Of a stretch of DNA of 64,000 nucleotides, positions 8,360 to 57,153 are shown piece by piece. The position numbers and the translations under genes are program-made. This DNA is from a virus. Lineage: Duplodnaviria > Heunggongvirae > Uroviricota > Caudoviricetes. A model generated the notes under the pieces. That model had not been told where the DNA came from, ran no database searches, and worked only from the letters and a program-made list of their open reading frames with translations. The stretch spans positions 317,336 to 381,335 of the IMG/VR virus record IMGVR_UViG_3300009709_000001; one strand, 5' to 3'. Numbering within the stretch: position 1 is the stretch's first letter; the number at the start of each line of letters is the position of its first letter.

Positions 8360-8549
8360 CGTACTTCAACTTTAACCAGACCGCAGCATCTTCCGGGCAG
8401 GTAAAAGTCAATAATGTAAATCCTGTCTTCGTCTTATGAAAAAATGTAGCACTGGTTACAATGCCATCCGAATACAGATCATAACAATCGGCAATGAACG
8501 ATCCATGTACCCTAGAGTTTGTTGGTAATCCGAAATCTTGTGTTATCAT
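8331..8549 (-). CDS. hypothetical protein (72 aa)
   Basis: Minus-strand small ORF; 'CPEDAAVWLKLKYG' motif echo. Confidence 0.4.
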   Translation of the reverse strand: MITQDFGLPTNSRVHGSFIADCYDLYSDGIVTSATFFHKTKTGFTLLTFTCPEDAAVWLKLKYGDYLITASI

Positions 8550-25585: not shown

Positions 25586-25608
25586 TATAGGGCCACCAGG
25601 GCCCTATA
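25586..25608 (-). terminator. GGGCC-core hairpin between GC-rich genes
   Basis: TATAGGGCC-ACCAG-GGCCCTATA, a 9-bp stem; it shares a GGGCC/GGCCC core with the hairpins at 26844 and 31341. Confidence 0.4.
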
Positions 25609-25641
25609 GTCAACTGAGTTTTACGTCAATTGGAACTGGTT

Positions 25642-26820: not shown

Positions 26821-26843
26821 GTGTAGCTCCTTGGGGGTGAAAA

Positions 26844-26865
26844 CTGGGGCCCCGAAGGGCCCCAG
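26844..26865 (-). terminator. GC-rich hairpin terminator/attenuator after AAA ATPase gene
   Basis: Minus-strand RNA: CUGGGGCCC-UUCG-GGGCCCCAG followed by UUUUCACCCCCAAGGAG(RBS)...AUG of the next gene. Confidence 0.5.
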
Positions 26866-26868
26866 GGG

Positions 26869-27966: not shown

Positions 27967-28056
27967 CGCTTCTTTCTTGGTTGCGGGATAAATCCCTGGT
28001 TAAATTTGTTTAACAGTCTCTATTTTATGCAGACGCGTGCGGTGACGCAACTGATT

Positions 28057-28364: not shown

Positions 28365-29192
28365 ATGAATACTCCATTTCTAAATAACAAATATACTGCC
28401 CGATATTATAAAATTATTAATACCGTTTTAGAATTAAATCGAAAGAAATTAAAAAGAAATAACCCTGATTACAGGTATTATGAATTGCATCATATTATTC
28501 CCAAATCATTAGGTGGTGACAATTCTTCTGCAAATCTTATACCTTTGACACCAAGGGAACATTATATATGCCACCTTTTACTCACCCGAATGACTGAAGG
28601 TAAAAATAGATATAAGATGCTCTGTGCATTCAACAGAATAACAAATAGAGGCCAGGCAGAAATTAAAAATTCTAGATTATATAATTCTATTCGAGAAGAC
28701 TTTTCGAAATCGCAGGCCGAAAATTATAAAGGTGATAAAAATCATTTTTATGGAAAGACTCACACAAAAGAAATCAGAGATTATTTAGCTGAGGTATGTC
28801 CACGATTCGGTAAAGATAATGGCAATTTTGGTAAATCATTATCTCAATCACAAAAAGATGCAATTTCGAAAAGTAATAAATCCAGAAAAATTATACCTCC
28901 ACCTCCGCAACTCGGTTCAAAAAATCATTTTTCTAAGATTTATAAAATAATCGACCCAACCGGTAATAAATTTACAATAAAATGCATGAGTGAATTTTGT
29001 GAAAGAAACAATCTTTGTAGTCGAACAATGATTTTATTTAAGGACAAAGGAAAAATTCCTGAATTGCAATTCGAACGAGAATATCGTGTAAAGAATCTCC
29101 AAGCAAAGAAGAACTGTGAAGGTTATTCTATTATTTCAATGACCTCGCCCCTTGGTCCTTTTCCATCAATCGACCATACAGTTACCGGATAA
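28365..29192 (+). CDS. HNH homing endonuclease with NUMOD-like repeats
   Basis: 'YYELHHIIPKSLGGDNSSANLIPLTPREHYICHLLL'; GATAAATA at 28352-28359 lies only 5 nt upstream of the ATG. Confidence 0.85.
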   Translation: MNTPFLNNKYTARYYKIINTVLELNRKKLKRNNPDYRYYELHHIIPKSLGGDNSSANLIPLTPREHYICHLLLTRMTEGKNRYKMLCAFNRITNRGQAEIKNSRLYNSIREDFSKSQAENYKGDKNHFYGKTHTKEIRDYLAEVCPRFGKDNGNFGKSLSQSQKDAISKSNKSRKIIPPPPQLGSKNHFSKIYKIIDPTGNKFTIKCMSEFCERNNLCSRTMILFKDKGKIPELQFEREYRVKNLQAKKNCEGYSIISMTSPLGPFPSIDHTVTG

Positions 29193-35618: not shown

Positions 35619-36884
35619 TTAGCCCTTGACACATAACACCTGCTTCAAGGTGTGTACAACCTTGACCAAGTCAGTTTGGCTGAGCATCACATCGTCAATG
35701 GACTTATAGGCTGCCGGACTTTCGTCAATCATGCCTTCGTCCTTACGGCATTCCACACCTGCAGTGGCCGCCACGTGTTCTTCAACCGTAATTTCCTTCT
35801 TTGCTTTGGAACGGCTCATCTTGCGTCCTGCACCATGGCTGCATGAGCAGAAGCTTTCAACATTACCCAGGCCTTCAACGATGAAGCTCTTTGCACCCAT
35901 CGAGCCCGGGATGATGCCCAACTCACCAGCTTGTGCGCTTACCGCGCCCTTACGAGTAACGATCACGTTTTCACCAAAGTGAACTTCTTCGTTGATGTAG
36001 TTGTGGTGGCAATTGATAGCTTCCTTCGTGATCTTGAAGACAGGAAGATGACGAGTCAGCGCCGTAATAACCAGTTCCAACATTGCGTCACGGTTGCGAC
36101 GTGCGTATTCCTGCGCCCAGCTCATTGCCTCGACATAATCGTCGTAATGTTGGCTACCTTCCTGCAAGTAAGCCAGATCCTTGTTCGGAAGAACAATCTT
36201 CTGTTCTTCAGCGTCTTTCTGTGCCAGCTCGATAAAGTAACGACCGATTGCATTACCAATGCCGCGAGAACCACTGTGGAGCATAATCCACACATCGTTG
36301 TTTTCATCGATGCACAGTTCGATGAAGTGATTGCCTCCGCCCAACGAACCGAGCTGAGTACGCGCCTTCTTTTCAGCGTCCTTGACCATCTTGTCGATGC
36401 CAGGATGCTTTGCAACGATTGCTTCCAGGCCAGTCTTCAGATTCTTGAACTGGTTGTTCAGAACGGTGCGTGTATTTTGATGACCCTTGCCATTCAAACG
36501 GTCGGTACTGTGTTCGTCGAACCCAACAGGCACCATCAATTCGATTTCGGAACGAACCTTGTGCAGATTGTCCGGAAGCTGATCAGCAGTCAAGCTGGTA
36601 CGACATGCAATCATGCCGCAACCAATATCAACGCCAACAGCCGCAGGAATTACAGTGCCGTGCGTTGCAAGCACCGTACCAACAGTAGAACCAGTACCAA
36701 CGTGTACGTCCGGCATCGCAGCCACGTGCTTAAATACAAAAGGCAGTTTGGTAATGCTGCGAAGTTGATCGATCGCGCCGGATTCGACGGGGACGTGCTT
36801 AGTCCACATTTTCACATCAACAAGGTCTCCTCGAATTAAATTATATGGGAGATATTTCTCATCATTAATATCTTCTTGCATCAT
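35619..36884 (-). CDS. rtcB: RtcB-family 3'-phosphate RNA ligase
   Basis: Signature motifs 'LGSLGGGNHFIEL', 'MLHSGSRGIGNAIG' and 'AINCHHNYI' are present; 421 aa. Confidence 0.9.
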   Translation of the reverse strand: MMQEDINDEKYLPYNLIRGDLVDVKMWTKHVPVESGAIDQLRSITKLPFVFKHVAAMPDVHVGTGSTVGTVLATHGTVIPAAVGVDIGCGMIACRTSLTADQLPDNLHKVRSEIELMVPVGFDEHSTDRLNGKGHQNTRTVLNNQFKNLKTGLEAIVAKHPGIDKMVKDAEKKARTQLGSLGGGNHFIELCIDENNDVWIMLHSGSRGIGNAIGRYFIELAQKDAEEQKIVLPNKDLAYLQEGSQHYDDYVEAMSWAQEYARRNRDAMLELVITALTRHLPVFKITKEAINCHHNYINEEVHFGENVIVTRKGAVSAQAGELGIIPGSMGAKSFIVEGLGNVESFCSCSHGAGRKMSRSKAKKEITVEEHVAATAGVECRKDEGMIDESPAAYKSIDDVMLSQTDLVKVVHTLKQVLCVKG

Positions 36885-37558
36885 TTTTCCTTACAATTAT
36901 CGAAATGCCATCTTTTCATTTGGCTATTACCGCCAATTTTACCACAATATGGGCACTCAATTTTTATACGAGGAACTCTCATTTTTATTTTTTGTTCCTC
37001 GCTCATTGGTCTATTTTTACTAAATGGTTCTCTACCTTTGTTAGCCAAAGAAATTTTATTTTTCGTTTCTTGAGTTGTAATATGCCCCTTCAGGGAATTG
37101 GATCGTTTTATATTTTCTTCTATTGAAGGTTTTCTACCGGGTACACCTTTCTTAGATTTCGAAATTTTTTCTTTTGTAGAGGCTAAACACGGGCCGGTAC
37201 TCTTTCCAATTTTTGCTACAGACATTTTGGACTTGGCGGCTTCAGAATGTTTTCTTCCACCCGGACCTTCGCCGCCATCTGTTAGATTAAGCAACGGACC
37301 TTTACCGAGATCTTTTCTTCCAAATTTAGAAATAAGTTCTTCCTCAATTAAGTGCGCCAGTTCTTCATCGAGGCCAGAATAAATACCAATAATCGGAATA
37401 ATTTGGTTTCTTTCCATTAATTTTAATCGTTGTATTAATGGATGTTTTCCTTTTCTCTTTAAATGACTCCATGCACGACTATCTCTGCCTTTACCGACAT
37501 ATATCGGTTCATTATTTCGAGAAGGATCGTAGTAGATATAGGTGTAATAATTATTCAT
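36881..37558 (-). CDS. GIY-YIG homing endonuclease with C-terminal Zn finger
   Basis: 'YYTYIYYDPSRNNEPIYVGKGRDSRAWSHL' is a GIY-YIG core. The C-terminus 'CPYCGKIGGNSQMKRWHFDNCKEK' is shared with the 24129 and 46909 products. GATAAATA (minus) at 37564-37571 lies 5 nt upstream of the ATG. Confidence 0.85.
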   Translation of the reverse strand: MNNYYTYIYYDPSRNNEPIYVGKGRDSRAWSHLKRKGKHPLIQRLKLMERNQIIPIIGIYSGLDEELAHLIEEELISKFGRKDLGKGPLLNLTDGGEGPGGRKHSEAAKSKMSVAKIGKSTGPCLASTKEKISKSKKGVPGRKPSIEENIKRSNSLKGHITTQETKNKISLANKGREPFSKNRPMSEEQKIKMRVPRIKIECPYCGKIGGNSQMKRWHFDNCKEK

Positions 37559-45976: not shown

Positions 45977-46247
45977 TAGCGAAATGTTCCCTCATTGCCT
46001 TGTACTGTTCCGGATGTGAACGCCAGTACATGGTATAGGCCTTATGTCCGGCATTGTAGTATCTATCGAAAATACGGCCACGAACTCTTTCGCTGCGAAC
46101 TTTGTGACCAATATTACCAGGACACTGATGTGTTCTATGCTCGAGAAGCTTGTCCCGAACTGTTCGATTGCATCCAATTCTGTTCTTAAAAGGAACGTGA
46201 CTTGTAGTGCCGATTTTGGCTGCTGTATGTGCGTTTACCGAAATCAT
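45969..46247 (-). CDS. small basic protein (92 aa)
   Basis: Immediately upstream of rnh on the same strand, the position dsbA occupies in T4; no sequence verification possible here. Confidence 0.45.
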   Translation of the reverse strand: MISVNAHTAAKIGTTSHVPFKNRIGCNRTVRDKLLEHRTHQCPGNIGHKVRSERVRGRIFDRYYNAGHKAYTMYWRSHPEQYKAMREHFAND

Positions 46248-46882
46248 TTGTAACCCTTTCTTCCGTCCTTAAAGACTTCTGTTTCAAAACTCCAGCGTTT
46301 CATGGCTTCAAGGTTTGCTTCCGAATCAGCAGTGAAATCACCAGTACCATCAAATTCTTCGAGTGCTACGTTTCTGCATACTTCCATAAACCATTGGTTT
46401 ACCAGATGATCAGCAGATGGGCCTACATATCCTTCAGACTTTAGCTTTTCAACAAAAGCATCGTTCCAGTCTAATTCAAAACTACCTTCGAGTGATGTAG
46501 ACTTACCGAAGTCCATATGTACCACCGTAACCCACGGCTCTCCCTTAAGTGTAGCACATTTTTTAGAATATTCTGTATCCCCAATTGAGCCTTCACGAAA
46601 GTCAAGTTCCGCCTTTGCTAAGGCACGAAGTTTATCGTCCTTAATCAAATCTAACAATCCATGTTCGTATTCTGACCTTGTGATCTTGGCATACTTCAGC
46701 CTGAGGTCTAACATTCTCTGATTGAAGTCTTCCGATGACATTTCATCTTGGCGAATTTGGAGTAATTTTTCTTCTCTCTCAAATCCAGTAAGCTCGTATT
46801 CAGCTTTAGCAGTCTCTCTTGTCTTTCCGGCTAGGCCCCAACTATAGGGCCACCAGGAAAAAGGAATTAATCGTTTAGACAT
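46244..46882 (-). CDS. hypothetical protein (212 aa)
   Basis: Minus-strand ORF. Confidence 0.5.
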   Translation of the reverse strand: MSKRLIPFSWWPYSWGLAGKTRETAKAEYELTGFEREEKLLQIRQDEMSSEDFNQRMLDLRLKYAKITRSEYEHGLLDLIKDDKLRALAKAELDFREGSIGDTEYSKKCATLKGEPWVTVVHMDFGKSTSLEGSFELDWNDAFVEKLKSEGYVGPSADHLVNQWFMEVCRNVALEEFDGTGDFTADSEANLEAMKRWSFETEVFKDGRKGYK

Positions 46883-46908: not shown

Positions 46909-47592
46909 TTGATAAATATATTTATGATCAATATTCATTTTTATAAAACATTTTTAGGTAACAAATACTCGAAATGGTATTTGTCTATTATTGTTGCTGC
47001 ACAATCGAAAAATCGTAAAAAATCCGAAGATTGCTATTACGAGCGTCATCATATTATACCCAAATCTATAAATCCTGAGATTTCGAACTTAAAATTAAAT
47101 CCCTGGAATGGAGTATTACTAACCGCGAAAGAGCATTTCATTTGTCATCTTCTTCTTACAAAAATGGCTATAGGAAAAGATAAGAATAAGATGATTTATG
47201 CATTATGGAATCTACGTAATCAGAAAACTAAATCTCAGGACCAGAGATTTACCTCAAATCTATACAACGTATACAAGAAACAGATGCAAGAAGCATTATC
47301 TGTAGATCGAAAAGGTAAATCTCTGGAAGAACGATACGGGATTACTCGTGCATCGGAGATTAAAGCATCCTACCGCACAAGAATCCCTCGTGGGAAAGTT
47401 TCCAATGAAGAAAAGGGTAAACTTTCTGAAAATATGAAAACTCTTCATCAAACCCGGCCTTGGAAAAGATTTATGCAAACCAACGGTGTTCTTCCAAAAA
47501 ATACCTGCCCGCATTGTAATAAAACAATGGATGTCGGTAATTATGGAAGATATCACGGGGACAAATGTAAATTACGCGAGATTAGCAAATAG
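46909..47592 (+). CDS. HNH homing endonuclease with C-terminal Zn finger (probable true start ATG 46924)
   Basis: 'CYYERHHIIPKSINPEISNLKLNPWNGVLLTAKEHFICHLLL'. The C-terminus is 'CPHCNKTMDVGNYGRYHGDKCK'. The ORF track starts at TTG 46909, but GATAAATA at 46911-46918 sits 5 nt before the ATG at 46924. Confidence 0.85.
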   Translation: MINIFMINIHFYKTFLGNKYSKWYLSIIVAAQSKNRKKSEDCYYERHHIIPKSINPEISNLKLNPWNGVLLTAKEHFICHLLLTKMAIGKDKNKMIYALWNLRNQKTKSQDQRFTSNLYNVYKKQMQEALSVDRKGKSLEERYGITRASEIKASYRTRIPRGKVSNEEKGKLSENMKTLHQTRPWKRFMQTNGVLPKNTCPHCNKTMDVGNYGRYHGDKCKLREISK

Positions 47593-48453
47593 ATGCATTT
47601 GCATTTGCATTCTGTAACCGTGCTCCATACAATATCTACCCACGTATTCGTGATTTTCTTGTATCTTCTGCATATTTAATAATCCCGGTTCGAAGAAATT
47701 AATAACTTCATCAACAGTTGAGCGCTCATCCATTGTGATATTGCCTTTTTCGTTGTGTAGAATTTTAATCTTCTGTGGAAGGCTGTTATACACATTCATC
47801 GGGCTAAGATATACTTCCTTAGTAGGATTATTTCTTTTCCACTCATGTGCCCATTCCGGAATTTGATTGTATGGGCTATCTGTTTCGGCACTAACGACAA
47901 ACTTCAAGCAATCTGCTCTTTCCAAAATTTGTTTGGTAGGAGAAAGATACTTAGTAGCCACACCATTCTTTTCAGCACATTTCGGGCTGCAAACGAGTGT
48001 AACACCTTCAGGAATAGGAAGATTTACAGTACCATTGCTTTCGATTTGTACTGCTCTGAAGTTAGGAACTTGTCTTTCTAGGAATGCTGTAAGGTTTGAT
48101 TGTAGTGTGGGTTCACCACCTGTAATAACCATAACAATGTTCGGGAAACTATATGCCTTCTTATCTGGATGTGCCCAAATAGGTGCTACACCACCTTTGT
48201 CTTCCCAATATTTATAGATCGTGTCACCTACCTTCTTTTCCAGTTCTTCATAAGTCATCCAATCTCCATCATCGAAGAATGTATCACAGAAAGAACAAGC
48301 TAGGTTACATTTTGTCAATCTAATGAATAGTGCAGGAGAACCGGCGTATGGACCCTCGCCTTGAAGTGTAAAGAACATACTTGTAACAAATAAACTATTC
48401 TCTGGTGCATCTTTGAAAAATTTCTGGCCAATAATTTGGTTAGTTCCGAACAT
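47572..48453 (-). CDS. queE: 7-carboxy-7-deazaguanine synthase QueE (radical SAM)
   Basis: 'FFTLQGEGPYAGSPALFIRLTKCNLACSFCDT' has the QueE C-x3-C-x2-C-DT cluster. 'VITGGEP' and 'QIESNG' are also present. The C-terminus 'MQMHLFANLA' resembles the E. coli QueE C-terminus. Confidence 0.9.
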   Translation of the reverse strand: MFGTNQIIGQKFFKDAPENSLFVTSMFFTLQGEGPYAGSPALFIRLTKCNLACSFCDTFFDDGDWMTYEELEKKVGDTIYKYWEDKGGVAPIWAHPDKKAYSFPNIVMVITGGEPTLQSNLTAFLERQVPNFRAVQIESNGTVNLPIPEGVTLVCSPKCAEKNGVATKYLSPTKQILERADCLKFVVSAETDSPYNQIPEWAHEWKRNNPTKEVYLSPMNVYNSLPQKIKILHNEKGNITMDERSTVDEVINFFEPGLLNMQKIQENHEYVGRYCMEHGYRMQMQMHLFANLA

Positions 48454-48985
48454 CTATTAATTCCTTCATTTCGTTTAGTGATAGAAATAACTTTTCACAG
48501 CTAAAACCATCTTTCTTATATTTGCTATTTTCTAAACACCAGCTTCTTATTGTTGTGTGATAAACACCGTAGAATTTGGCAGCGTGTTCTAGGGATGGAA
48601 ATTTTCCGTCTAGTGTGGTTACCAACATTTTCCATCCTTTTGCATCATCTCTGTCAATTTTGCCGAGAGAACACTCAACTTCTGGAACAACATATTCTCT
48701 AGAAAGGTAATTTATTGCACTTTGTAGAAGAGAAATATCATCCTTGAATAACCCGAGTGCGGTGTTGCAGTCAGTGCATAGTAGACCTCTGATTTTTCCA
48801 GATACATGATTATGATCAACTGCTAGATCTCTTCCGCAATAGTCGACTTGCTGGCAGATGCAACAGACACCATTTTGATCGGATTTTATTGCTTCATATT
48901 GATCGTAGTTTATTCCAAACTTCAAAAGAAGCCCATTTTTCTTTCTTCTTTTTTTAGATCTTTCCGGTGTATTAATTATTCCCAT
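48440..48985 (-). CDS. endonuclease VII-like Holliday-junction resolvase (T4 gp49 family)
   Basis: 'VCCICQQ...LAVDHNHVSGKIRGLLCTDCNTALG' matches the T4 EndoVII zinc/H-N-H core; an extra C-terminal domain follows. Confidence 0.88.
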   Translation of the reverse strand: MGIINTPERSKKRRKKNGLLLKFGINYDQYEAIKSDQNGVCCICQQVDYCGRDLAVDHNHVSGKIRGLLCTDCNTALGLFKDDISLLQSAINYLSREYVVPEVECSLGKIDRDDAKGWKMLVTTLDGKFPSLEHAAKFYGVYHTTIRSWCLENSKYKKDGFSCEKLFLSLNEMKELIDVRN

Positions 48986-49913: not shown

Positions 49914-50188
49914 TTTGAAAACCTTATTTTGAAAACTAATGCATCTTCAGGATTTTCAAAGCCCACGAAGACTATTACATTTCCGTGATTGCTGAGCACT
50001 TTCACATCTGCTGACCCCGACGTATTATCGTGGAGCCAGTAGAGCAATTCTAAATACATTTCCTGCTGATACGGAAACTTGATTATAGTTCTGAATTTTT
50101 CGTCGAAGTTAACCACTAATGGTTCCGGCTCCAGACTTACTGTCGGTTGCTTCCGGAACATATTCCAAAGTTGCGCCATTTTCCCCAT
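49910..50188 (-). CDS. hypothetical protein (92 aa), 'EDA-motif' family-like C-terminus
   Basis: Ends 'VIVFVGFENPEDALVFKIRFSK'; the start overlaps the QueD 3' end, so the true start may be internal. Confidence 0.45.
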   Translation of the reverse strand: MGKMAQLWNMFRKQPTVSLEPEPLVVNFDEKFRTIIKFPYQQEMYLELLYWLHDNTSGSADVKVLSNHGNVIVFVGFENPEDALVFKIRFSK

Positions 50189-50495
50189 CTTCGCTAACCT
50201 CTACGGAAATTTTACGATTTGGATAGGTCTTGCTGATGTAGTCAATTAAGTCTTCAGCAAGCATTTCGCAACTCTTGAAATCTACCTGCAATGTTGCTTC
50301 GGAATACAGAGCTTCGAGTTCTCTCTTAAATAGGATGAACTCGATATCCCTGTCATTGTGAAATACTTCCACTGTAACCCTGAAGTGGAAAATATGTCTG
50401 TGTGGATGTTTTAGAAATTCTACACCTTCTGGTGCATCGGGATACCTATGAATCCCTTCTTTCTGAAATGTTACGAAAATTGTCCGTGAAATCAT
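50109..50495 (-). CDS. queD: QueD-like 6-carboxy-5,6,7,8-tetrahydropterin synthase (PTPS family)
   Basis: 'FQKEGIHRYPDAPEGVEFLKHPHRHIFHFRV' parallels the E. coli QueD segment '[26 protein letters not shown]'; 128 aa. Confidence 0.75.
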   Translation of the reverse strand: MISRTIFVTFQKEGIHRYPDAPEGVEFLKHPHRHIFHFRVTVEVFHNDRDIEFILFKRELEALYSEATLQVDFKSCEMLAEDLIDYISKTYPNRKISVEVSEDGENGATLEYVPEATDSKSGAGTISG

Positions 50496-50701
50496 TTTAT
50501 TCTTTTTGTCTTAACCTTATACCTAGATTTGAATTCCATCTTCTTTAATTTCCGATAGTATTCTTCGAAAGTATATGGTCGAAAAATCATTGCCGCACCA
50601 ACTGGTGCAAAGCTTGTCTTGTCTTCATGCCACAGAGAAACTAAGCGTCCACTTAGTTTCTCTATGATATATAACTTCTCTGCTTCGGCACGAGTTGTCA
50701 T
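50492..50701 (-). CDS. hypothetical protein (69 aa)
   Basis: Minus-strand small ORF. Confidence 0.35.
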   Translation of the reverse strand: MTTRAEAEKLYIIEKLSGRLVSLWHEDKTSFAPVGAAMIFRPYTFEEYYRKLKKMEFKSRYKVKTKRIK

Positions 50702-51583
50702 TTACTTCTTCTTAGATGCCGCCTTTTTCGCACCCGATTCTTGGGTTTCGGTCGTGCCATCTGCATGAGCATAGAGATCAGCGACTTCCTGCTTCGTCGA
50801 GCTTCCTTGCGAAAGAACAACTTCACTCTTGACTTCTTCATCCGCTTCAGCCTTTAGTTGAGAAGGTGAGGTTGGGTCAAGGCCGAGAGATGCATCGTTC
50901 TGCACGGGTGTCTCGGCCTTCTCAACAGCCTTAACCTGCTTTGCGATCAAATCACTCGGATCGATGTAAGTAATCTCTCGTTCTGGCTCCTTGCGAACAA
51001 CATATGGAGGCATCGGTGTAGGTAATACATCATGAGACGGTGATGCAGAGATATTAACCTGACCGGTAACATCTTCATCAGTCACATAATCTTGCCAATC
51101 AGTGAAACGATTGCTGTCGGTTAATTCAGTGAAATGCCTGCACCATACACCTGGATTAGTTGCCTTGAAATCAATATCATCGATCTTAACCGTTAGATTA
51201 GGACTAGACATTTCGATCTTAGGAATACGAACACTGAGCAAGGGCACGAATAAACGAGATTGCCATACACCAGCACTGAAGATGTTTAAGACATCCTTAT
51301 GTTGATGTGCCTGATAATCGATTGTTACCCAAAAACCACGATCGAGCAAGTGTGTTGCAAGATCATTCCAATTCTTGTTTTCGACATCAGAATTTGCCTC
51401 AACATCAAATGAATGATTTGCGCCAAGGAATACATGCTGTACCTTATATTGGCGAGCATATTTTTCCACTTCTTGTGGACTCTGATATCCGACTACAAAG
51501 AGTGTCTTTTTCGAGTATGCCGGAGTATGTTCAACTTCCGGTCCAATGAAATATTTTGTTTTTTCGTGTCCTGCTCTATTCAT
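50702..51583 (-). CDS. hypothetical protein (293 aa): Rossmann-like N-domain plus acidic/Lys-rich disordered tail
   Basis: 'KTLFVVGYQSPQEVEKYARQYKVQHVFLGANHSFD' is an alpha/beta-like segment. The last ~100 aa are low-complexity E/K/S/T-rich. It sits between QueD and the glycosyltransferase-like gene. Confidence 0.55.
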   Translation of the reverse strand: MNRAGHEKTKYFIGPEVEHTPAYSKKTLFVVGYQSPQEVEKYARQYKVQHVFLGANHSFDVEANSDVENKNWNDLATHLLDRGFWVTIDYQAHQHKDVLNIFSAGVWQSRLFVPLLSVRIPKIEMSSPNLTVKIDDIDFKATNPGVWCRHFTELTDSNRFTDWQDYVTDEDVTGQVNISASPSHDVLPTPMPPYVVRKEPEREITYIDPSDLIAKQVKAVEKAETPVQNDASLGLDPTSPSQLKAEADEEVKSEVVLSQGSSTKQEVADLYAHADGTTETQESGAKKAASKKK

Positions 51584-51592
51584 AATTTCCTT

Positions 51593-52807
51593 TTAGTATT
51601 TTTCGCGGCCGACGTGCTTTCTATAATCTAGTCCGTTTCGTGCCCACTGTGCGCCGTTACCCTTTTCGCCACCCTCAAGGATATCGATGGTACGGTCAAT
51701 TGTTCCATTCTGCCAATCGCTGACTGCACCAGTTGTAAACTTTGCAGGATTGTTCAGCATTGCGGTTAGCTTTGCTGCGGCATCATCTAAGCTCCACGGA
51801 ATATACAAGTTATTCGCATTATTTGCGAACACTTCCGGGAAACTACGATAAGCTGGGAACAAGGTCAGTGTTCCAAATGTGTCGGCTTCGCTAACAGTGT
51901 TACTTACCCAATCTTGAAGGGCACAGTTGAATAAAACGACACTGTCTGCGACAATTTCGTAATAATCGTTCTTCTTCAGACCGGTATAGACCTTGAAATT
52001 AGCAGTTCCGCTAGATTCCAGGTATTTCGCAAACTCGATGTTTTGCGGATTGTTGCTCTTCAATTCAGGATGTCCAGTCACTACCGCAAATTCCACATCA
52101 GGGTGTGTCTTGAACATTTTCTGTGCGAGCTGCATATAGAAGTCGGGTTGCTTCTCATCATCCCAACGAGCTGCAAACACGACACGTTGTTCACGCGAGG
52201 TAATTGGCTTGATGTACTCAACACGTTCAAGCACTTCTTCTTTGCCAAACGGAAGACCAGTAACATAGATAGGTGCCTTGAATCCTGCGATACGCAGATT
52301 AGCAACCATTTCTTCACTTGCCACAAGGATGCCCGATACAAATTCGTCGATCATCAACTCATAGTTACGCATCCAATGACCCATTCCTTCGCGGTTAACG
52401 AAATCATCGGGATCAATGGATTGTGCAAGACAACGAACATAAACCTTCGGACGATACTTCTTAGGCACCTGGTCCATGATGTACGGTAAACATTCAATGC
52501 CTGGAGTAAACATATCTTCGTAGAAGATAACGTCATTACTTGTGACTTTACCTTCCTTCATCAGCTTGATCAGATTTGCAGTCTGCATCATGCTGTAATA
52601 TGTTCGACCGTGTGCATCAAGTACACTACCGGTAACAATGTTCTTGTCGGCAGTTAATTCTGCACCTTTGACAATCTCGTAGTCGATGCCACGAGCTTGA
52701 AATACACGTTCATTCCAGTCTTGGAGTTGCAGTGTGTATCGAGCTTCGTATGCTTCCAAGCCCATATAGAACAGTTTTTTCATAGGTCTTCCTTGTTGAT
52801 TCCCCAT
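51593..52807 (-). CDS. putative GT-B fold glycosyltransferase (possibly a DNA glycosyltransferase)
   Basis: The 404-aa protein starts 'MKKLFYMGLEAYEARYTLQLQDWNERVFQARGIDYEIV', resembling the N-terminal strand of T-even phage DNA glucosyltransferases (recalled from memory, not verified). Its C-terminal half has a GT-B-like pattern. Confidence 0.5.
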   Translation of the reverse strand: MGNQQGRPMKKLFYMGLEAYEARYTLQLQDWNERVFQARGIDYEIVKGAELTADKNIVTGSVLDAHGRTYYSMMQTANLIKLMKEGKVTSNDVIFYEDMFTPGIECLPYIMDQVPKKYRPKVYVRCLAQSIDPDDFVNREGMGHWMRNYELMIDEFVSGILVASEEMVANLRIAGFKAPIYVTGLPFGKEEVLERVEYIKPITSREQRVVFAARWDDEKQPDFYMQLAQKMFKTHPDVEFAVVTGHPELKSNNPQNIEFAKYLESSGTANFKVYTGLKKNDYYEIVADSVVLFNCALQDWVSNTVSEADTFGTLTLFPAYRSFPEVFANNANNLYIPWSLDDAAAKLTAMLNNPAKFTTGAVSDWQNGTIDRTIDILEGGEKGNGAQWARNGLDYRKHVGREKY

Positions 52808-53151
52808 TTTACTTTAAGTGTATGTATATCGTCAAAGGGGCCAGTCATTGGCTGCACTCCGAGAAGTTCATCGGCAATAATGTTAGGCATAATTCGATTA
52901 ATCATTGGAATTCTTATACCCTTAGGCTTTGGAGGGGCCTTAAGTTTTTCGATAATCTTTTCAGCCTCAATTTCCTCTGTTGTCATACCCGCAAGACGCA
53001 ATTCTTCTGCAGCCTCTGCATCAATCTTTTCGGCAAAAATCCTGGCTTGTTCTTCCAGCATATACTTGACGATATCATTATTACTACTGGTAATCGAATC
53101 TATTAATTCTTTCTTGGATTCGTTCCAGTTTTCGAATAATTTCTTTGTCAT
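52780..53151 (-). CDS. hypothetical protein (123 aa)
   Basis: Minus-strand ORF. Confidence 0.45.
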   Translation of the reverse strand: MTKKLFENWNESKKELIDSITSSNNDIVKYMLEEQARIFAEKIDAEAAEELRLAGMTTEEIEAEKIIEKLKAPPKPKGIRIPMINRIMPNIIADELLGVQPMTGPFDDIHTLKVKWGINKEDL

Positions 53152-53432
53152 TTCGACATTCTCAATACATAGGCCACGGCATCGGGTCCGTCGAGTTTAA
53201 TTGACGCGTCGCTATAAATCTGATATCCTGCCTCGGGCATCCAACCATAGCCAGACTTGGCAAGTGGCTTTACCTTGATTGTTTTCGGACTAATTGTAGT
53301 GACCTTGCTGACGATTAATTGGTTTTGTCTAGCAAATGCTACTGTATCGCCTAATTTTAGTTCAGTACCTAGAAGATCTTTTTGGACTAACGGTTCTTTC
53401 TTTTTTCTTGTTGTTTTTATTTCTTCAGTCAC
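53148..53432 (-). CDS. hypothetical protein (94 aa)
   Basis: Minus-strand ORF. Confidence 0.45.
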   Translation of the reverse strand: MTEEIKTTRKKKEPLVQKDLLGTELKLGDTVAFARQNQLIVSKVTTISPKTIKVKPLAKSGYGWMPEAGYQIYSDASIKLDGPDAVAYVLRMSK

Positions 53433-53445
53433 TTACCTACTTTCC

Positions 53446-53913
53446 TTAAATCCAGGTACCCTCTCTCGATACCTTGTTATCAATACCTGCCAATTTATTC
53501 ATCGTTTTTTGCTGATTTGCAAATTCAGTTTCTTGATCGATGCGCTTCTTTAGATATGTTCTAATCACGTCACGATGATACCAAATGAATTCTTCATATT
53601 TGGATAGACCATTACATGGACAACACAATACGAAATTAATGCCATTGATAATACGACCTGATACTGCATCGCTGTCGTAATGCAAGATCACTTTATCAGG
53701 ACTTTCTTTATATCGAAACTCGCAATGTTCTGCCCAGTTCTTTTCATCTTCTTCGTCACACTCAGACCAACCCCAATCGACATTGACGCACAAATGTTCA
53801 CGTCCGCACCAATTGCAATCCATCTGATAAGAACCGTGGCCAGGTTCTGCTTCACGGCAGGCATCTAAAAAAAGCTCCGTTGGAGCTTTTGGGCAATCTT
53901 TAGGATTTTTCAT
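53446..53913 (-). CDS. Cys-rich putative zinc-binding protein (155 aa)
   Basis: Multiple Cys pairs (DCNWCGREHLC, CPCNG, HCEF). Confidence 0.45.
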   Translation of the reverse strand: MKNPKDCPKAPTELFLDACREAEPGHGSYQMDCNWCGREHLCVNVDWGWSECDEEDEKNWAEHCEFRYKESPDKVILHYDSDAVSGRIINGINFVLCCPCNGLSKYEEFIWYHRDVIRTYLKKRIDQETEFANQQKTMNKLAGIDNKVSREGTWI

Positions 53914-54145
53914 GTCCGTCCTTTATAATATCGAATATAGTGCTCTTATACTCGTATTCAGTCGCAAAGAATATCTTGTTCATGATCATATCAAATCTTG
54001 TCCAATAGGGTTGATGAACTTGTTTTCTTAGTACAAATTCTAACCAAACTGTTTCTTTGTCATTGATCTTAACTGGATGCCAAGCAAACCAGCGGTGCCA
54101 TACTAAGCGTGGATTTTCTGACGGATTATAAACTTTCCATCTCAT
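53900..54145 (-). CDS. hypothetical protein (81 aa)
   Basis: Minus-strand ORF; Trp-rich. Confidence 0.4.
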   Translation of the reverse strand: MRWKVYNPSENPRLVWHRWFAWHPVKINDKETVWLEFVLRKQVHQPYWTRFDMIMNKIFFATEYEYKSTIFDIIKDGHEKS

Positions 54146-54978
54146 GGTTCAAAGTCCTTTGCCTGCTCGTGTGTTCTTTTAAAGCCGGATGCAGTCTTGT
54201 GGCCACCGCCTCCAAAGATTTCGGCAATCTCAGCAACATTCATACCTTCTGCAGTCGAACGTAGACCAAATTCTCTATGTGTGGCAGTGTCGTAATAATA
54301 CGCTGCGAAAGGCTCGTTTTTCGCCAAAATTGAGCAAATATCAGAACCAAACTGATAGGGAACGTTAGCAGCTGGAACATTAAACCCTGCAATATTCAGA
54401 CGTCTAACGACAACGCCAAGTAATTCCTTGACATTTTTCATGTTGGCACGCTCGATAGCTGTACCATCTCTGATTTGCTCTTCAATGCTTTGTTCCGCAA
54501 TCATGTCCCAGTTTTCGAAGTTGTATTCGTAGCTGAAAATGCTCGCGTTGACTTCACGGCAGCCCGGAATTAAAAACTTCCAACGATCCCTATCATCGAC
54601 ATAGCGGATAAACGGTGGAACTTCTAGATCCTTGAAGAAATACTTCCAAGCCAGCATTGCACCGCTTTCAGTATTCTTTGGACTGTAGAAAGATTCGAAT
54701 TTAGGATCCGAAAAACCTTCCATGTCACGAATTGCTGTTTCGTGATGGTCAATGTGAATAACCTGTTTTGCGTCACGAACAATTTGTTCCATGATCGGAC
54801 GCTTATAGCTGAAGTCGACGATGTAGACAATCTTGTCTTTTACATCAGGCGGCTCTTCTTTGTAGACGCCAGGATGATATACAATACTTTCATCCTTGCC
54901 GTGTGCTGCTCTGACTACCCATGCAGCAGTAAATCCATCAATGCATTTGCCGTGATAGATACATACAATTCCACTCAT
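54142..54978 (-). CDS. DHH/DHHA1-family phosphoesterase (NrnA-like)
   Basis: 'CIYHGKCIDGFTAAW' (DHH motif I/II region), 'IHIDHHE' (DHH motif) and 'GGGGHKTASGF' (DHHA1 GGGH motif). Confidence 0.72.
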   Translation of the reverse strand: MSGIVCIYHGKCIDGFTAAWVVRAAHGKDESIVYHPGVYKEEPPDVKDKIVYIVDFSYKRPIMEQIVRDAKQVIHIDHHETAIRDMEGFSDPKFESFYSPKNTESGAMLAWKYFFKDLEVPPFIRYVDDRDRWKFLIPGCREVNASIFSYEYNFENWDMIAEQSIEEQIRDGTAIERANMKNVKELLGVVVRRLNIAGFNVPAANVPYQFGSDICSILAKNEPFAAYYYDTATHREFGLRSTAEGMNVAEIAEIFGGGGHKTASGFKRTHEQAKDFEP

Positions 54979-55175
54979 TTGTTCCCGGCTCCGTGGCTCT
55001 GTGCGATAAACGCCTTCAACTCAGCTTCATGTGCCCTCATGAATTGCTCAGCGATAAGAAGGGAAATTCCGGTGGTTCCACCGATTACCTTCGTTGCTAT
55101 ATGTGCTTCTTGCGCTTCTTGCAGGGCGGTAAACACCTCCCCTACAGTTAGCGGATATTGAGCTAGATTTCTCAT
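54975..55175 (-). CDS. hypothetical protein (66 aa)
   Basis: Minus-strand small ORF. Confidence 0.35.
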   Translation of the reverse strand: MRNLAQYPLTVGEVFTALQEAQEAHIATKVIGGTTGISLLIAEQFMRAHEAELKAFIAQSHGAGNK

Positions 55176-55477
55176 TTCTTTCCTTTGTGTCGAACCCGTG
55201 ATTCGCGCCTAATCTTTTTCGGCATAACATAAAAGTCGGGTTTCATACCAGAAATTAGAGAATGAGAATAAATCATCCCGTTCATCATACCATGCATGTA
55301 CTGGGAGGGTTCACTTGCGGAGGACTGTAAACAATCCTCCTGTATGCCCATCATTTCCTCTAATTTTTTCAGGCGCTTTTGCAGCTCGTCATTCATCGAT
55401 CTTAGAATGATCATCTTGACCTTGATCTGCCATTTCTTCACCAGATGGTGTTTCAGCACGATGGCCATCGATATCAC
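55172..55477 (-). CDS. hypothetical protein (101 aa)
   Basis: Minus-strand ORF; overlaps the DpdA 3' end, so the start may be internal. Confidence 0.4.
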   Translation of the reverse strand: MISMAIVLKHHLVKKWQIKVKMIILRSMNDELQKRLKKLEEMMGIQEDCLQSSASEPSQYMHGMMNGMIYSHSLISGMKPDFYVMPKKIRRESRVRHKGKK

Positions 55478-56954
55478 CCCACATTACTGTGTTGGTCATT
55501 GTAGTAGTGGTTTTCTTATCGCCAAAACTTACAAAGTCGAGGAATTTCTGATTCTCTGCCAACATATTGTAAGGGTCTTTGTTGGAAGGGTCAAGTAATT
55601 CCTCAACAAAGGAGTTGAAATACAAAATTGAGTTTGGAACAAAGTTACTAATCGGTGTACTGCTCTTTTTATCACCGGGGCGATAATCTTTCCAACTAAT
55701 TTTAGGCTTCAAAATATATTCGATGTCTGCAAGACGATTAATTTCTTGCACAGCCTGAATATGATTGTATACATTATGTGCCATGACAAGAGCATAAGTG
55801 GTTGTATCCCAACTTGTCTTGCCTTCTTTGCCATGCTTGTTCAAATCGCCGGGCCCCATCACACACATATCAGATGCGTATAATCTTTCCATAATCGGTC
55901 CTTGGAACGGCATTGCAATTTTCTTATCTTTCAAATCCTTGCTATCAATGCCCCTGCCCATCGCATAGGTAAGTTGATCGGGTTTGAAATAATTGTAATT
56001 GTAGGAGAGTGCATAACCACCAGCCGCAACAAAAGGTGATGCAGCGTCGAAGCTGATATTGATATTAGGATTATCGTATTTCTTCAACAGACGCTCGATA
56101 CTAGACAAATAACATGCCCAATCTAAACGACCAATACCCAGAAAGTGAATCCAATCTTTACCCTCTAACAGTCCATCTCTGCGCAAGTCAAGAATACGTT
56201 CAAGAACAGTTTTCATGTTCTTCATGTTGATACCTGCAAATGCCCAACCTTCTAATGTTCTATCCTTGGAATAGCCCATAGCTTCAACACTCGATGGAAT
56301 ACTGAAGTGTTTTACTGTTTCATACCAATCACGAGAATTGCTATTATCACTACCCGAAAGAACATTAAGAAACTTAGTTGCTCCCGGAACCCGATTCTTC
56401 ATGAAATAATGCAAATTGTATTCGGTAACATCCAGACAGTCCTGAAACTTAGTAAGTCCAGTTTTTGCACTCAATGGTGGAAGAGCAGCAAATGCCGGCA
56501 CGTCCAATGTCATTGACCAATCAGCAGTATGTTCTAGGTAACGTAGAATTTCTTCACGTAGCTTATCACCTGCGTCTGTCATGACTGTTGACCAATCAAG
56601 CTTAATAACGCCGGTTGCAATCTGGAAGCCGCCAGAGTCGCCAATCAGTACGGTGTCATCTCCACGCTTGTGAATCATCGGTTCACGATCGTCACAACGT
56701 GATAAATTTCTATCAGCATGTCCTGCTGAATACAAACCCCACTTGTAGTGAAAATAACTATCTTCTGATTTTAGGAAATCGAGTCCTTGAATACCATATT
56801 CAAATTTTTCAGGCACACGTTCTTTCGGTACAAAGTTCTCGTCTGCAAGATCTTTACCGAGATGAGTGGTATAAAAACCACTAATGGCGGGAAGGTATTT
56901 TGCCCAACCGCCTTCGATATGTCTTTCGGTAAAATCTACTCTATTTTTTGTCAT
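55389..56954 (-). CDS. dpdA: DpdA-like 7-deazaguanine DNA transglycosylase (tRNA-guanine transglycosylase superfamily)
   Basis: 'VLIGDSGGFQIATGVI' is the TGT catalytic DSGGFQ motif. 'WSMTLDVP', 'EGWAFAGI', 'HFLGIGRLDWACYL' and 'ISFDAASPF' line up with TGT core segments. It has no C-terminal Zn-binding CxCxxC...H, as in phage DpdA. Confidence 0.85.
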   Translation of the reverse strand: MTKNRVDFTERHIEGGWAKYLPAISGFYTTHLGKDLADENFVPKERVPEKFEYGIQGLDFLKSEDSYFHYKWGLYSAGHADRNLSRCDDREPMIHKRGDDTVLIGDSGGFQIATGVIKLDWSTVMTDAGDKLREEILRYLEHTADWSMTLDVPAFAALPPLSAKTGLTKFQDCLDVTEYNLHYFMKNRVPGATKFLNVLSGSDNSNSRDWYETVKHFSIPSSVEAMGYSKDRTLEGWAFAGINMKNMKTVLERILDLRRDGLLEGKDWIHFLGIGRLDWACYLSSIERLLKKYDNPNINISFDAASPFVAAGGYALSYNYNYFKPDQLTYAMGRGIDSKDLKDKKIAMPFQGPIMERLYASDMCVMGPGDLNKHGKEGKTSWDTTTYALVMAHNVYNHIQAVQEINRLADIEYILKPKISWKDYRPGDKKSSTPISNFVPNSILYFNSFVEELLDPSNKDPYNMLAENQKFLDFVSFGDKKTTTTMTNTVMWGDIDGHRAETPSGEEMADQGQDDHSKIDE

Positions 56955-57153
56955 ATATTTCTTGTACTTTGGCTATCAGTAATTCAACTGTCCAACCGTG
57001 TTTTGCGATAGTGTCTAATGCACCAGATGGAAACCATACAGATTCATCCTGCCGAACTTCGTATAAGCGACCATATTTGGCTATCATCTCTGTGTGCAGA
57101 GTATGAAAGCTTGATCTCTTTAATCGTTCGAATGTAAGGTCAATGTCTTCCAT
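56941..57153 (-). CDS. hypothetical protein (70 aa)
   Basis: Minus-strand small ORF. Confidence 0.4.
   Translation of the reverse strand: MEDIDLTFERLKRSSFHTLHTEMIAKYGRLYEVRQDESVWFPSGALDTIAKHGWTVELLIAKVQEIYDKK

Follow-up and report, generated by a model that had tools for sequence, protein, structure and literature searches.

The window, as we term the whole 64,000-nucleotide stretch of DNA that was analysed, carries a cluster of deazaguanine genes on the minus strand, within which lies a gene for a glycosyltransferase (GT) (Table 1). No DNA near-identical to positions 50000-57000 was found among GenBank phages. The 404-codon ORF at 51593..52807 on the minus strand was confirmed as a genuine gene. 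Since its homologues were 386-396 aa long (98% query coverage), and since a second ATG (Met9), located at 52783, shares an ATGA with the stop codon of the ORF upstream and is preceded by an AAGGAAG ribosome-binding site, Met9 is most likely the true start, giving a protein of 396 aa. The GT family comprised more than 7,900 homologous 90% clusters, many of which came from contigs 100-390 kb long; clustering at 50% gave 854 clusters with E≤1e-3. These cluster numbers indicate that the ORF is a member of a true gene family and exclude a chance ORF. Cellular genomes were almost devoid of the family, which turned up on 7 MAG contigs among 185,579 species and is apparently phage-specific. In its long members, the extra length consisted of C-terminal tails or an intein. 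When the single GT protein was searched, PHROGs gave no match and NCBIfam nothing except a trivial TviE fragment.

Table 1. Features of the deazaguanine gene cluster in the window
Feature	Coordinates	Strand	Evidence
QueE-like radical SAM enzyme (7-carboxy-7-deazaguanine synthase)	47572..48453	-	PHROG 2076, Pfam
HNH-type homing-endonuclease-like ORF, between QueE and the remaining cluster	48440..48985	-	CxxC...HNH features
DpdL, QueD-like T-fold, predicted 7-carboxy-7-deazaguanine decarboxylase	50109..50495	-	motif, tblastn
293-aa protein, function unassigned; N-terminal ~170 aa form the conserved domain p293N	50702..51583	-	
GT, GT4-like GT-B glycosyltransferase, 396 aa	51593..52783	-	ORF, start context, AlphaFold2, Foldseek, motifs
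Long DpdA-like protein, 521 aa, putative DNA guanine transglycosylase, TGT superfamily, very divergent	55389..56954	-	

The QueE-like protein matched PHROG 2076 ('QueE-like', E 4.7e-54) and Pfam Radical_SAM, and its best NCBIfam matches were all QueE models, under their cut-offs. DpdL carries LKHPHRHIF, the LxxxHRHxF signature that stands in place of the CxxxHGH of QueD. By tblastn it was 38% identical to phiST DpdL (E 9e-13) and 50% identical to ACP17 DpdL; it matched PHROG 17812 and did not match Pfam PTPS. DpdL is predicted to decarboxylate 7-carboxy-7-deazaguanine to 7-deazaguanine, an activity that is itself a prediction (PMC10516641). The p293N protein often accompanies the GT/DpdL/DpdA-like module, and its C-terminal tail is of low complexity and confined to the clade of the window. 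The tie of the long DpdA-like protein to the TGT superfamily is drawn from profile-sequence hhalign and motifs. The DSGGFQ and FDxASPF motifs were invariant in its family alignment, and hhalign gave probabilities of 97% to a BUDD protein that is annotated as 'queuine tRNA-ribosyltransferase', 96.6% to the homologue from BUCT-ZZ01, 48% to phiST DpdA3, and 16% to E. coli Tgt. Neither its single sequence nor a profile of 28 sequences matched any entry of Pfam, PHROGs, NCBIfam, or the PDB, and none of the 28 family members matched Pfam TGT. The HNH-type ORF, which had a homologue in none of 82 related loci, reads as an insertion outside the pathway. FolE, QueD, and QueC were not found within the 64-kb window.

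The initial annotation had placed GT in a deazaguanine cluster, next to QueD and one gene away from DpdA. The cluster was confirmed; the neighbour, however, is DpdL rather than QueD, with two ORFs in between, and the DpdA-like gene lies not one gene but seven small ORFs upstream of GT.

Fold and donor site of the glycosyltransferase

The AlphaFold2 model of GT (pLDDT 96, pTM 0.93) displayed beta/alpha alternation in two halves. Foldseek against the PDB returned 464 matches at E≤1e-3, of which the top ones were all GT-B enzymes of family GT4; MshA, SenB, GlgM, and BshA scored best (E about 1e-12), and the lipid GT4 enzyme PimA was also among the best matches. The single GT protein scored 21.4 bits against Pfam Glycos_transf_1, under the cut-off of 26.4, and 65 of 95 family members matched this model at E≤0.05 (best E-value 4.5e-10). 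Among 95 diverse homologues, R206 and K211 (Met9 numbering) were invariant, D291 and E299 were kept in at least 90%, and the conserved Q290-D291 stood in for the first Glu of the EX7E motif. These donor residues aligned with the RxxxxK, EX7E, and LEA motifs of GT4 enzymes (WlaC, GlgM, and WbaZ). Model and motifs together indicated that GT is a retaining-type GT4-like GT-B glycosyltransferase. The two-domain GT-B pattern first read into a 404-aa product was therefore borne out as to fold, and the length needs correcting to a likely 396 aa.

The N-terminus of GT had also been said to recall the T-even phage DNA glucosyltransferases. We were unable to recover this likeness, as the GT sequence matched no PDB chain at E≤10 and neither T4 AGT nor T4 BGT was among the 50 best PDB matches of Foldseek. 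In BFVD, entries named 'DNA alpha-GT' ranked 11-12 (TM 0.47-0.52), on par with generic viral GT4 proteins. Two outcomes had been named beforehand as speaking against a DNA role, namely a fold other than that of a glycosyltransferase, or top matches to glycosyltransferases that do not act on DNA. The first did not occur; the second formally did, in the form of small-molecule GT4 enzymes. These top matches leave a role in DNA modification standing, because the sugar may join the free base before insertion. GT has an acidic pI of 5.2, against a median of 5.7 for the family. Charge was considered as an indicator of DNA binding and discarded, as the DpdA-like protein is equally acidic though it must bind DNA.

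Strict genomic linkage of the glycosyltransferase to DpdL

DpdL was located within 0-4 genes of GT in every family member with sufficient flanking sequence. It was present in 79 of 82 related GT loci of metagenomic phages, the three exceptions ending at contig edges, and the order of GT, DpdL, and p293N was permuted between clades of these loci. The linkage was found in seven cultured lineages, namely PA5oct, ACP17, BUCT-ZZ01, BUDD/X1, BCSR5, Phosso, and the clade of the window itself. Cultured phages belonging to different families had GT within the deazaguanine operon: the gene order was QueD-FolE-p293N-DpdA-GT-DpdL-QueE in ACP17, DpdA-GT-DpdL...QueE in PA5oct, and FolE...GT-TGT-like-DpdL-QueE in BUDD, with GT likewise inside the deazaguanine operon in BCSR5 and BUCT-ZZ01. 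In Phosso, adjacent DpdL and GT genes lay beside FolE and QueE, and the DpdA-like gene was 170 kb off. Distant GT members (32-35% identity) had DpdL within 0-4 genes on 7 of 7 contigs, one of them belonging to a phage whose DNA polymerase is of family A. All six complete GT loci from the 185,579 species genomes, each on a MAG contig, had DpdL as well. By tblastn, GT was found in 22 phage records, and DpdL was missing from the PhiXhv-12 group only, where the GT match was partial and low-scoring. On one contig a DpdL-GT-DpdA trio was flanked by two sugar-1-P nucleotidylyltransferases, an SDR epimerase and reductase, a GT2, and a TarF-like transferase.

Related T4-like phages are the source of many of the related loci, so that the synteny among these loci is partly inherited. 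Inherited synteny nevertheless fails to explain the linkage, because the gene order is shuffled between lineages. Our results thus showed a strict genomic linkage of GT to DpdL. Fusions of GT with DpdL, DpdA, or p293N were found in none of 150 representatives. The N-terminus of Bakedbeans gp176, which is joined to DpdL, did not resemble DpdA3.

Proposed role in deazaguanine modification and comparison with known systems

The initial annotation had offered two explanations of the gene, a second DNA modification such as a glucosylated hydroxymethyl-pyrimidine, or glycosylation of the deazaguanine base itself. The observation behind it was confirmed and its interpretation partly supported, with the second explanation favoured, since GT was tied to DpdL wherever this could be assessed. 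We propose, with moderate confidence, that GT is a dedicated part of a DpdL-type 7-deazaguanine DNA-modification module in which it glycosylates the deazaguanine, and that the phage DNA carries glycosylated 7-deazaguanine. In this pathway, QueE would convert CPH4 to 7-carboxy-7-deazaguanine (CDG), with FolE and QueD coming either from the host or from a part of the genome outside the window, and DpdL would convert CDG to 7-deazaguanine. GT, catalytically competent as judged from its donor site, would transfer a sugar from an NDP-sugar to the deazaguanine moiety, and the long DpdA-like transglycosylase would exchange guanine in DNA for the base. The end product would be DNA with glycosylated 7-deazaguanine in place of plain dDG. 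Our analysis shows the fold, the conserved donor residues, the identities of DpdL and QueE, and the linkage of GT to DpdL, from which we infer the deazaguanine acceptor, the stage at which the sugar is added (free base or DNA), the kind of sugar, and the atom that carries it (C7, N2, or O6). It appears slightly more likely that the sugar joins the free base before insertion by DpdA than that it is added to DNA. A specific form of the reaction, which we regard as quite improbable, is a GT4-type C-glycosylation at the electron-rich C7 unmasked by DpdL; it would yield 7-glycosyl-7-deazaguanine, with the sugar in the major groove, which the DpdA-like protein would install where most or all guanines would otherwise stand. 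Position C7 of 7-deazaguanine offers no obvious O or N for attachment, and a sugar would have to be added by C-glycosylation or by attack at N2 or O6; neither reaction is known to us for GT4 enzymes that act on DNA, which counts against glycosylation of the base. Also counted against it were the acidic GT protein, a similarity to the tRNA-queuosine mannosyltransferase QTMAN that is restricted to the C-terminal domain, the purely predicted activity of DpdL, and the presence of dDG in phiST, a phage with no GT.

The last point bears directly on a different role for GT, which we consider unlikely, in that GT would be needed for making or inserting 7-deazaguanine and the sugar would be absent from the final DNA. 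Examples would be a transient glycosylated intermediate, or GT as a partner or scaffold of DpdL and the DpdA-like protein, and the DNA would contain plain dDG. GT and DpdL are directly adjacent in many lineages, and GT co-varies with the long DpdA-like type, as the DpdL phages phiST and D479, which have a short DpdA3 and a kinase, are without GT. Heterologous expression of ACP17 dpdL and dpdA failed to yield dDG, and its authors suspected that further enzymes were lacking (PMC10516641). The ACP17 genes for GT and p293N lie between these two and outside the construct of dpdL and dpdA as described, and the text of PMC10516641 does not mention GT (0 occurrences). However, the DNA of phiST contains 100% dDG (Cui, Hutinet et al., NAR 2023, PMC10516641), and no GT homologue was found in phiST. 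GT is thus unnecessary for dDG, and phiST dpdL and dpdA likewise failed in E. coli (PMC10516641). The NDP-sugar site, moreover, is fully conserved, and NDP-sugar genes are linked to the trio on the contig described above, which would be costly if the sugar were transient. A mechanism of this kind is not known for deazapurines.

GT could instead act outside nucleic acids, on a pterin intermediate, a host envelope component, or a protein, with its place in the cluster reflecting co-regulation or metabolic side-chemistry. Cyanobacterial pteridine glycosyltransferases glycosylate pterins, and pterins are handled by FolE, QueD, and T-fold proteins. The acidity of GT and its best structural matches, which are small-molecule and lipid GT4 enzymes (MshA, BshA, SenB, and PimA), fit such a role as well. 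We nevertheless judge it improbable. GT is linked to DpdL specifically, with QueE and the DpdA-like gene nearby, despite the shuffled gene order; among the 22 tblastn phage records, those without DpdL were confined to the PhiXhv-12 group with its partial, low-scoring GT; and a distribution of 7 MAG contigs in 185,579 species would be unusual for envelope or pterin enzymes.

An independent modification of the T-even type, in which GT would glucosylate hydroxymethyl-cytosine or hydroxymethyl-uracil, is highly improbable: the GT-B fold is common to the T4 alpha- and beta-glucosyltransferases and the window phage is T4-like (a gp23-like fragment, and a family-B DNA polymerase, clamp, and RNase H in T4-like order), yet PDB, Foldseek, and BFVD searches gave no specific similarity to the T-even enzymes, the about 50 ORFs scanned in the 64-kb window, which is part of a probable jumbo genome, included nothing like a dCMP/dUMP hydroxymethylase gene, and GT tracks DpdL in lineages that have no relationship to T-even phages, such as the phage whose polymerase is of family A. 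The first of the two explanations offered initially, a glucosylated hydroxymethyl-pyrimidine, therefore found no backing in the window.

Glycosylation of deazaguanine by GT would join two strategies of DNA modification. We know of about ten 7-deazaguanine DNA modifications, none of them with a sugar, and of DNA glycosylation on hydroxymethyl-pyrimidines only. The initial annotation had stated that known deazaguanine DNA systems do not include a sugar transferase, and none that does was found in our literature search. The search likewise found no report of glycosylated deazaguanine in phage DNA and no published description of a link between GT and the deazaguanine DNA pathway. If correct, a sugar-bearing deazaguanine would unite both strategies and add a new guanine hypermodification. 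It would bear on restriction and CRISPR evasion, on nanopore and sequencing artefacts, on enzymatic tools, and on defence systems that sense modified guanine, such as the END nucleases targeting PA5oct. If the C-glycoside were correct, no C-glycosylated DNA base and no C-glycosyltransferase of the retaining GT4 type would have preceded it, and it would be widespread in aquatic T4-like and jumbo phages. Given the large size of the GT family, the modification could be common in nature. The restriction resistance of PA5oct DNA implies a modified guanine of undetermined structure, and GT may account for this guanine as well as for the failed reconstitution of dDG from ACP17 dpdL and dpdA. The module is present in at least six cultured phage groups (PA5oct-like, ACP17, BUDD/X1, BCSR5, BUCT-ZZ01, and Phosso), which makes the sugar prediction testable.

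Among known systems, the T4 alpha- and beta-glucosyltransferases (GT72 and GT63) glucosylate 5-hydroxymethylcytosine in DNA. Like GT, they are phage-encoded GT-B enzymes; they use an NDP-sugar and presumably protect the DNA from host nucleases, and the same is proposed for GT. A sequence relationship to GT is undetectable, however, and structurally they are no nearer to GT than any GT4 enzyme. The acceptor pathway also differs, being hydroxymethyl-pyrimidine in T4 and, as predicted here, deazaguanine for GT. The phiST system (PMC10516641) shares with the window QueE and a DpdL that bears LxxxHRHxF, along with a protein of the TGT superfamily, a putative one in the window; QueC was found neither there nor in the 64-kb window, and in both the cluster adjoins the DNA polymerase. 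In contrast, phiST has a short 259-aa DpdA3, MazG, and a kinase without a glycosyltransferase, whereas the window has the long 521-aa DpdA-like protein together with GT and the p293N protein.

MshA and BshA, of mycothiol and bacillithiol synthesis, are retaining GT4 enzymes that transfer GlcNAc onto a small acceptor, after which a PIG-L/LmbE deacetylase acts. They are 10-14% identical to GT, and the N-terminal domain of GT is without their glycine-rich loop. No deacetylase-like gene was found near GT in the window. A weakly PIG-L-like protein is encoded two genes from GT in BCSR5 and BUDD, and in PhiXhv-12 the more distant GT lies beside a BshB-like deacetylase and GlmS. HuiG, a GT4 enzyme of the huimycin cluster of Kutzneria albida, uses UDP-GlcNAc to glycosylate the 2-amino group of a free base of the 7-deazaguanine type (bioRxiv 10.64898/2026.04.15.718813). 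HuiG resembles GT, by its published description, as a GT4 in a FolE/QueD/QueE-type cluster. It differs in that its product is a secondary metabolite, its acceptor is O6-methyl-preQ0, and its cluster is without DpdA.

QTMAN (GTDC1) is a GT4 tRNA-queuosine alpha-mannosyltransferase and thus places a sugar onto a 7-deazaguanine derivative in nucleic acid. Together with HuiG, it is a precedent, in favour of the proposed role, for GT4 action on 7-deazaguanines. The C-terminal donor domain of a GTDC1 sequence was markedly similar to the GT family, whose profile scored 66.6 bits against it (E 1.4e-17), while the top GT4 of the PDB reached 22 bits; hhalign gave 97.9%. The GTDC1 sequence was validated by a full-length match to Pfam QTMAN_N (227.6 bits). 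The motifs RWxxxKxPxxFF and LEAxxxGCxPxxP...PE are common to the QTMAN C-terminal domain and GT. The N-terminal acceptor domain of QTMAN, in contrast, is unrelated to that of GT (hhalign probability 0.1%), and none of 95 GT-family members matched Pfam QTMAN_N (PF12038) at E≤0.05. QTMAN acts on tRNA, where the cyclopentenediol of queuosine provides the acceptor hydroxyl, and the GT phages are without genes for that group. Since the similarity is restricted to the donor-binding C-terminal domain, the resemblance between GT and QTMAN may reflect a shared donor and not a shared acceptor.

Fold and catalytic residues of the glycosyltransferase

The glycosyltransferase-like gene (GT) was initially annotated as encoding a 404-aa product. 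The open reading frame itself stood, and the protein is most likely 396 aa long, because its homologues were 386-396 aa in length (covering 98% of the window ORF) and a second ATG, at 52783, overlapped the upstream ORF's stop codon as ATGA and followed an AAGGAAG ribosome-binding site. Residues were therefore numbered from this Met. The family was large and genuine, with more than 7,900 matching 90%-identity clusters, many of them from 100-390 kb contigs; in an exhaustive HMMER search, 854 clusters at 50% identity passed E<=1e-3. Pfam Glycos_transf_1 scored 21.4 bits against the protein, below the cut-off of 26.4, and sequence searches of PHROGs and PDB chains gave no match.

The proposed GT-B fold was borne out by an AlphaFold2 model (pLDDT 96, pTM 0.93), for which the PDB matches listed by Foldseek were GT-B enzymes only. 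The best of them (MshA, SenB, GlgM, BshA, PimA, and LmbT; E about 1e-12) were retaining GT4 transferases with small acceptors. Across an alignment of 95 diverse representatives (29-60% identity), R206 and K211 were invariant, at least 90% of the members kept D291 and E299, and in GT4 structures all four correspond to the RxxxxK and EX7E motifs. Since these donor-site residues were conserved and aligned to GT4 motifs, the enzyme should be catalytically active. GT is almost certainly a glycosyltransferase.

One family representative (P0239, 726 aa) carried an intein-like insertion of about 300 aa (CLGG...HN|C) exactly within FNC|ALQDW, the most conserved motif of the family, which forms the first half of the EX7E-equivalent donor site. 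The usual location of inteins is in essential active sites of replication proteins. The C-terminal part of the ORF overlapping the GT start matched the N-terminal end of gp23, the T4 major capsid protein (positions 7-47 of Pfam Gp23, E 3e-9; PHROG 138). This ORF is far too short for a capsid protein and could represent a remnant, or a fragment with a propeptide-like or capsid-targeting role; its homologue was found at one related locus only (L006).

Features of the window and of related phage loci (L-numbered loci in their own coordinates)
Feature	Coordinates	Strand	Remarks
GT ORF	51593-52807	-	404 codons
gp23-like ORF	52780-53151	-	123 aa, directly upstream of GT
p293N gene	50702-51583	-	293 aa, directly downstream of GT; conserved N-terminal domain (p293N) of about 170 aa
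DpdL	50109-50495	-	128 aa; LKHPHRHIF motif; tblastn to phiST and ACP17 DpdL
QueE	47572-48453	-	7-carboxy-7-deazaguanine synthase
DpdA-like	55389-56954	-	521 aa; DSGGFQ and FDxASPF motifs
212-aa protein	46244-46882	-	25 related loci keep it beside the RNase H/flap endonuclease gene
GC-rich island	25600-28000		GC 0.61 vs about 0.42 elsewhere
Homing-endonuclease-like ORFs	927-1637, 12687-13223, 14903-15472, 15697-16305, 24129-24881, 28365-29192, 36881-37558, 48440-48985		HNH and/or NUMOD3; at least eight in 64 kb
RtcB RNA ligase	35619-36884		E 6e-129
DUF2201 metallopeptidase/VWA protein with MoxR-like AAA ATPase	18257-19456 with 21484-22710		
D-Ala-D-Ala carboxypeptidase	8546-9346		Peptidase_S11
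BUCT-ZZ01 phosphoribosyltransferase	L001 5093-5554		in deazaguanine cluster
PA5oct phosphoribosyltransferase	L002 8339-8773		in deazaguanine cluster
BUCT-ZZ01 second GT	L001 7010-8353		447 aa, weakly GT1-like
PhiXhv-12 block	L099 3618-6852		distant GT, GlmS, BshB-like (PIG-L) deacetylase
Bakedbeans DpdL fusion	L087 9215-10366		383 aa, DpdL as C-terminal domain

Linkage of the transferase to DpdL

The neighbouring gene had been read as QueD. Pfam PTPS did not match its product, which instead agreed with LxxxHRHxF, the defining signature of DpdL according to Cui, Hutinet and colleagues, a QueD-like T-fold protein predicted to decarboxylate 7-carboxy-7-deazaguanine (CDG) to 7-deazaguanine (PMC10516641). 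It was also homologous, by tblastn, to DpdL of phiST (38%, E 9e-13) and ACP17 (50%), and is DpdL rather than QueD. The DpdA-like gene, placed one gene away by the initial annotation, was seven small ORFs from GT. Its TGT-type motifs were kept and were invariant in its family, but the protein was far more divergent than assumed: neither alone nor as a 28-sequence profile did it match anything in Pfam, PHROGs, NCBIfam or PDB. By hhalign it matched two phage proteins strongly, one from Xanthomonas phage BUDD that carries the annotation queuine tRNA-ribosyltransferase (97%) and one from BUCT-ZZ01 (96.6%), but it reached only 48% with the short DpdA3 of phiST and 16% with E. coli Tgt.

We searched 82 loci (80 from IMG/VR with GT relatives of 56-80% identity, plus BUCT-ZZ01 and PA5oct from GenBank) with the proteins of the window. 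DpdL was found in 79, the remaining three being cut by a contig end; the DpdA-like gene was present in 68 and p293N in 58, and the order of GT, DpdL and p293N varied from clade to clade. Since many of these loci come from related phages, independent lineages weigh more. In six cultured phages of different families, GT lay within the deazaguanine operon: ACP17 (QueD-FolE-p293N-DpdA-GT-DpdL-QueE), PA5oct (DpdA-GT-DpdL...QueE), BUDD (FolE...GT-TGT-like-DpdL-QueE), BCSR5, the cyanophage BUCT-ZZ01 (QueE-PRTase-QueD-FolE-second GT-DpdA-like-DpdL-GT), and Phosso, where adjacent DpdL and GT lay beside FolE and QueE with the DpdA-like gene 170 kb off. Distant members (32-35% identity) occurred on seven contigs, one of them belonging to a phage whose DNA polymerase is of family A, and each contig had a signature-bearing DpdL within 0-4 genes. 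Among 185,579 prokaryotic species (one genome each), only seven loci were found, all on MAG contigs, and DpdL adjoined GT in all six complete ones; the family therefore appears phage-specific.

GT presence co-varied with the long DpdA-like protein. GT is an extra component of one kind of DpdL system, because phiST and D479 carry DpdL with the short DpdA3 plus a kinase and without GT, and phiST DNA still contains 100% 7-deazaguanine deoxynucleoside (dDG). The GT-bearing system is widespread, and GT very probably works within the DpdL pathway. Comparative genomics considerably strengthened the central idea of a sugar transferase tied functionally to deazaguanine DNA modification; the original observation held with corrections and its interpretation in part, the adjacency details having been loose.

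Several other features were observed. In Vibrio phage Bakedbeans the N-terminal 260 aa of the DpdL fusion had no detectable relative and were neither DpdA3-like nor GT-like. The 212-aa protein had no family match and was also conserved in PA5oct (38% identity). One homing-endonuclease-like ORF, an insertion that separates QueE from the other cluster genes, had no counterpart in any related locus. Such NUMOD3/HNH ORFs also flanked the GC-rich island, which held a 392-aa ORF open on both strands and a 365-aa AAA/STAND-like ATPase and may be a horizontal acquisition. ARAGORN found no tRNA genes in the 64-kb window.

Proposed sugar transfer in the deazaguanine pathway

On one contig, the DpdL-GT-DpdA trio lay within a same-strand gene block with two sugar-1-phosphate nucleotidylyltransferases, an SDR epimerase/dehydratase, an RmlD-like reductase, a GT2, a TarF-like transferase, and a radical SAM/SPASM enzyme. 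BUDD and BCSR5 shared PP-loop (PAPS-reductase-like) and weakly PIG-L-like proteins next to GT, the PIG-L-like one lying two genes from the DpdL-linked GT, and PA5oct had a short epimerase-like ORF nearby. This hints at real sugar chemistry attached to the deazaguanine pathway, differing by lineage. The small, homologous phosphoribosyltransferases of BUCT-ZZ01 and PA5oct (E 4e-10) hint at a nucleotide-level branch in some lineages. In Xanthomonas phage PhiXhv-12, the distant GT scored 91 bits with the family profile, its N-terminal part remaining unmatched, and had no DpdL near it; its block seems to form a separate phage module of GlcNAc-to-GlcN transfer.

The literature searched contained no report of glycosylated deazaguanine in DNA and no description of this deazaguanine-linked transferase; the 2023 paper defining DpdL and DpdA3 nowhere mentions a glycosyltransferase (PMC10516641). 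Two published loose ends fit a role for GT. PA5oct DNA has a restriction resistance pattern implying modified G, and ACP17 dpdL and dpdA expressed in E. coli gave no dDG, the authors suspecting missing enzymes (PMC10516641); GT and p293N are located between these two genes in ACP17.

In the pathway we propose, QueE would supply CDG, DpdL would convert it to 7-deazaguanine, GT would place a sugar on this base, and the long DpdA-like enzyme would insert the sugar-bearing base into DNA. The chance that the sugar ends up on deazaguanine in DNA is about even. That GT acts only as a helper or transiently, with plain dDG in the finished DNA as in GT-less phiST, is rather unlikely beside the sugar genes of the trio-bearing block. 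Transfer to a pterin or another acceptor that is not nucleic acid is improbable: although the GT4 matches take small acceptors, GT accompanies DpdL across lineages. T-even-type glucosylation of hydroxymethyl-pyrimidine is highly improbable: the initially noted likeness to T-even DNA glucosyltransferases was not specific, with no T-even enzyme in the top 50 PDB matches and "DNA alpha-GT" proteins ranking only 11-12 among predicted viral structures, where their TM of about 0.5 equalled that of generic viral GT4 enzymes and the best matches were an unnamed homologue (TM 0.80) and the ACP17 protein (TM 0.69); nor was a hydroxymethylase gene found among the ORFs scanned in the window. Genes for FolE, QueD, QueC and NDP-sugar synthesis were likewise not detected among these ORFs.

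Comparison with known deazaguanine-glycosylating enzymes

The human GTDC1/QTMAN query sequence was validated by Pfam (QTMAN_N 227.6 bits, full length). The GT family profile matched the C-terminal domain of this sequence at 66.6 bits (E 1.4e-17, PDB-size search space; 97.9% in hhalign), whereas across the PDB the top score of any GT4 enzyme was 22 bits, and on this comparison of profiles the donor-binding domain is specifically QTMAN-like. The acceptor-binding N-domain of QTMAN is unlike that of the GT family, and the likeness may reflect a common donor, such as GDP-mannose, rather than a common acceptor.

Action on the free base, before insertion, is mildly favoured, because the GT4 enzymes nearest to GT in structure act on small molecules, HuiG is a precedent for a free-base acceptor, the Phosso GT sits with base-synthesis genes far from DpdA, and the GT protein is acidic; glycosylation after insertion is slightly less likely. 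With attachment at C7 the sugar would stay in the major groove, though C-glycosylation would be required; attachment at N2 would follow HuiG but occupy a minor-groove position. HuiG is described in the literature as a GT4 enzyme of a FolE/QueD/QueE cluster whose reaction is the N-glycosylation of a free 7-deazapurine base at its 2-amino group (bioRxiv 10.64898/2026.04.15.718813).
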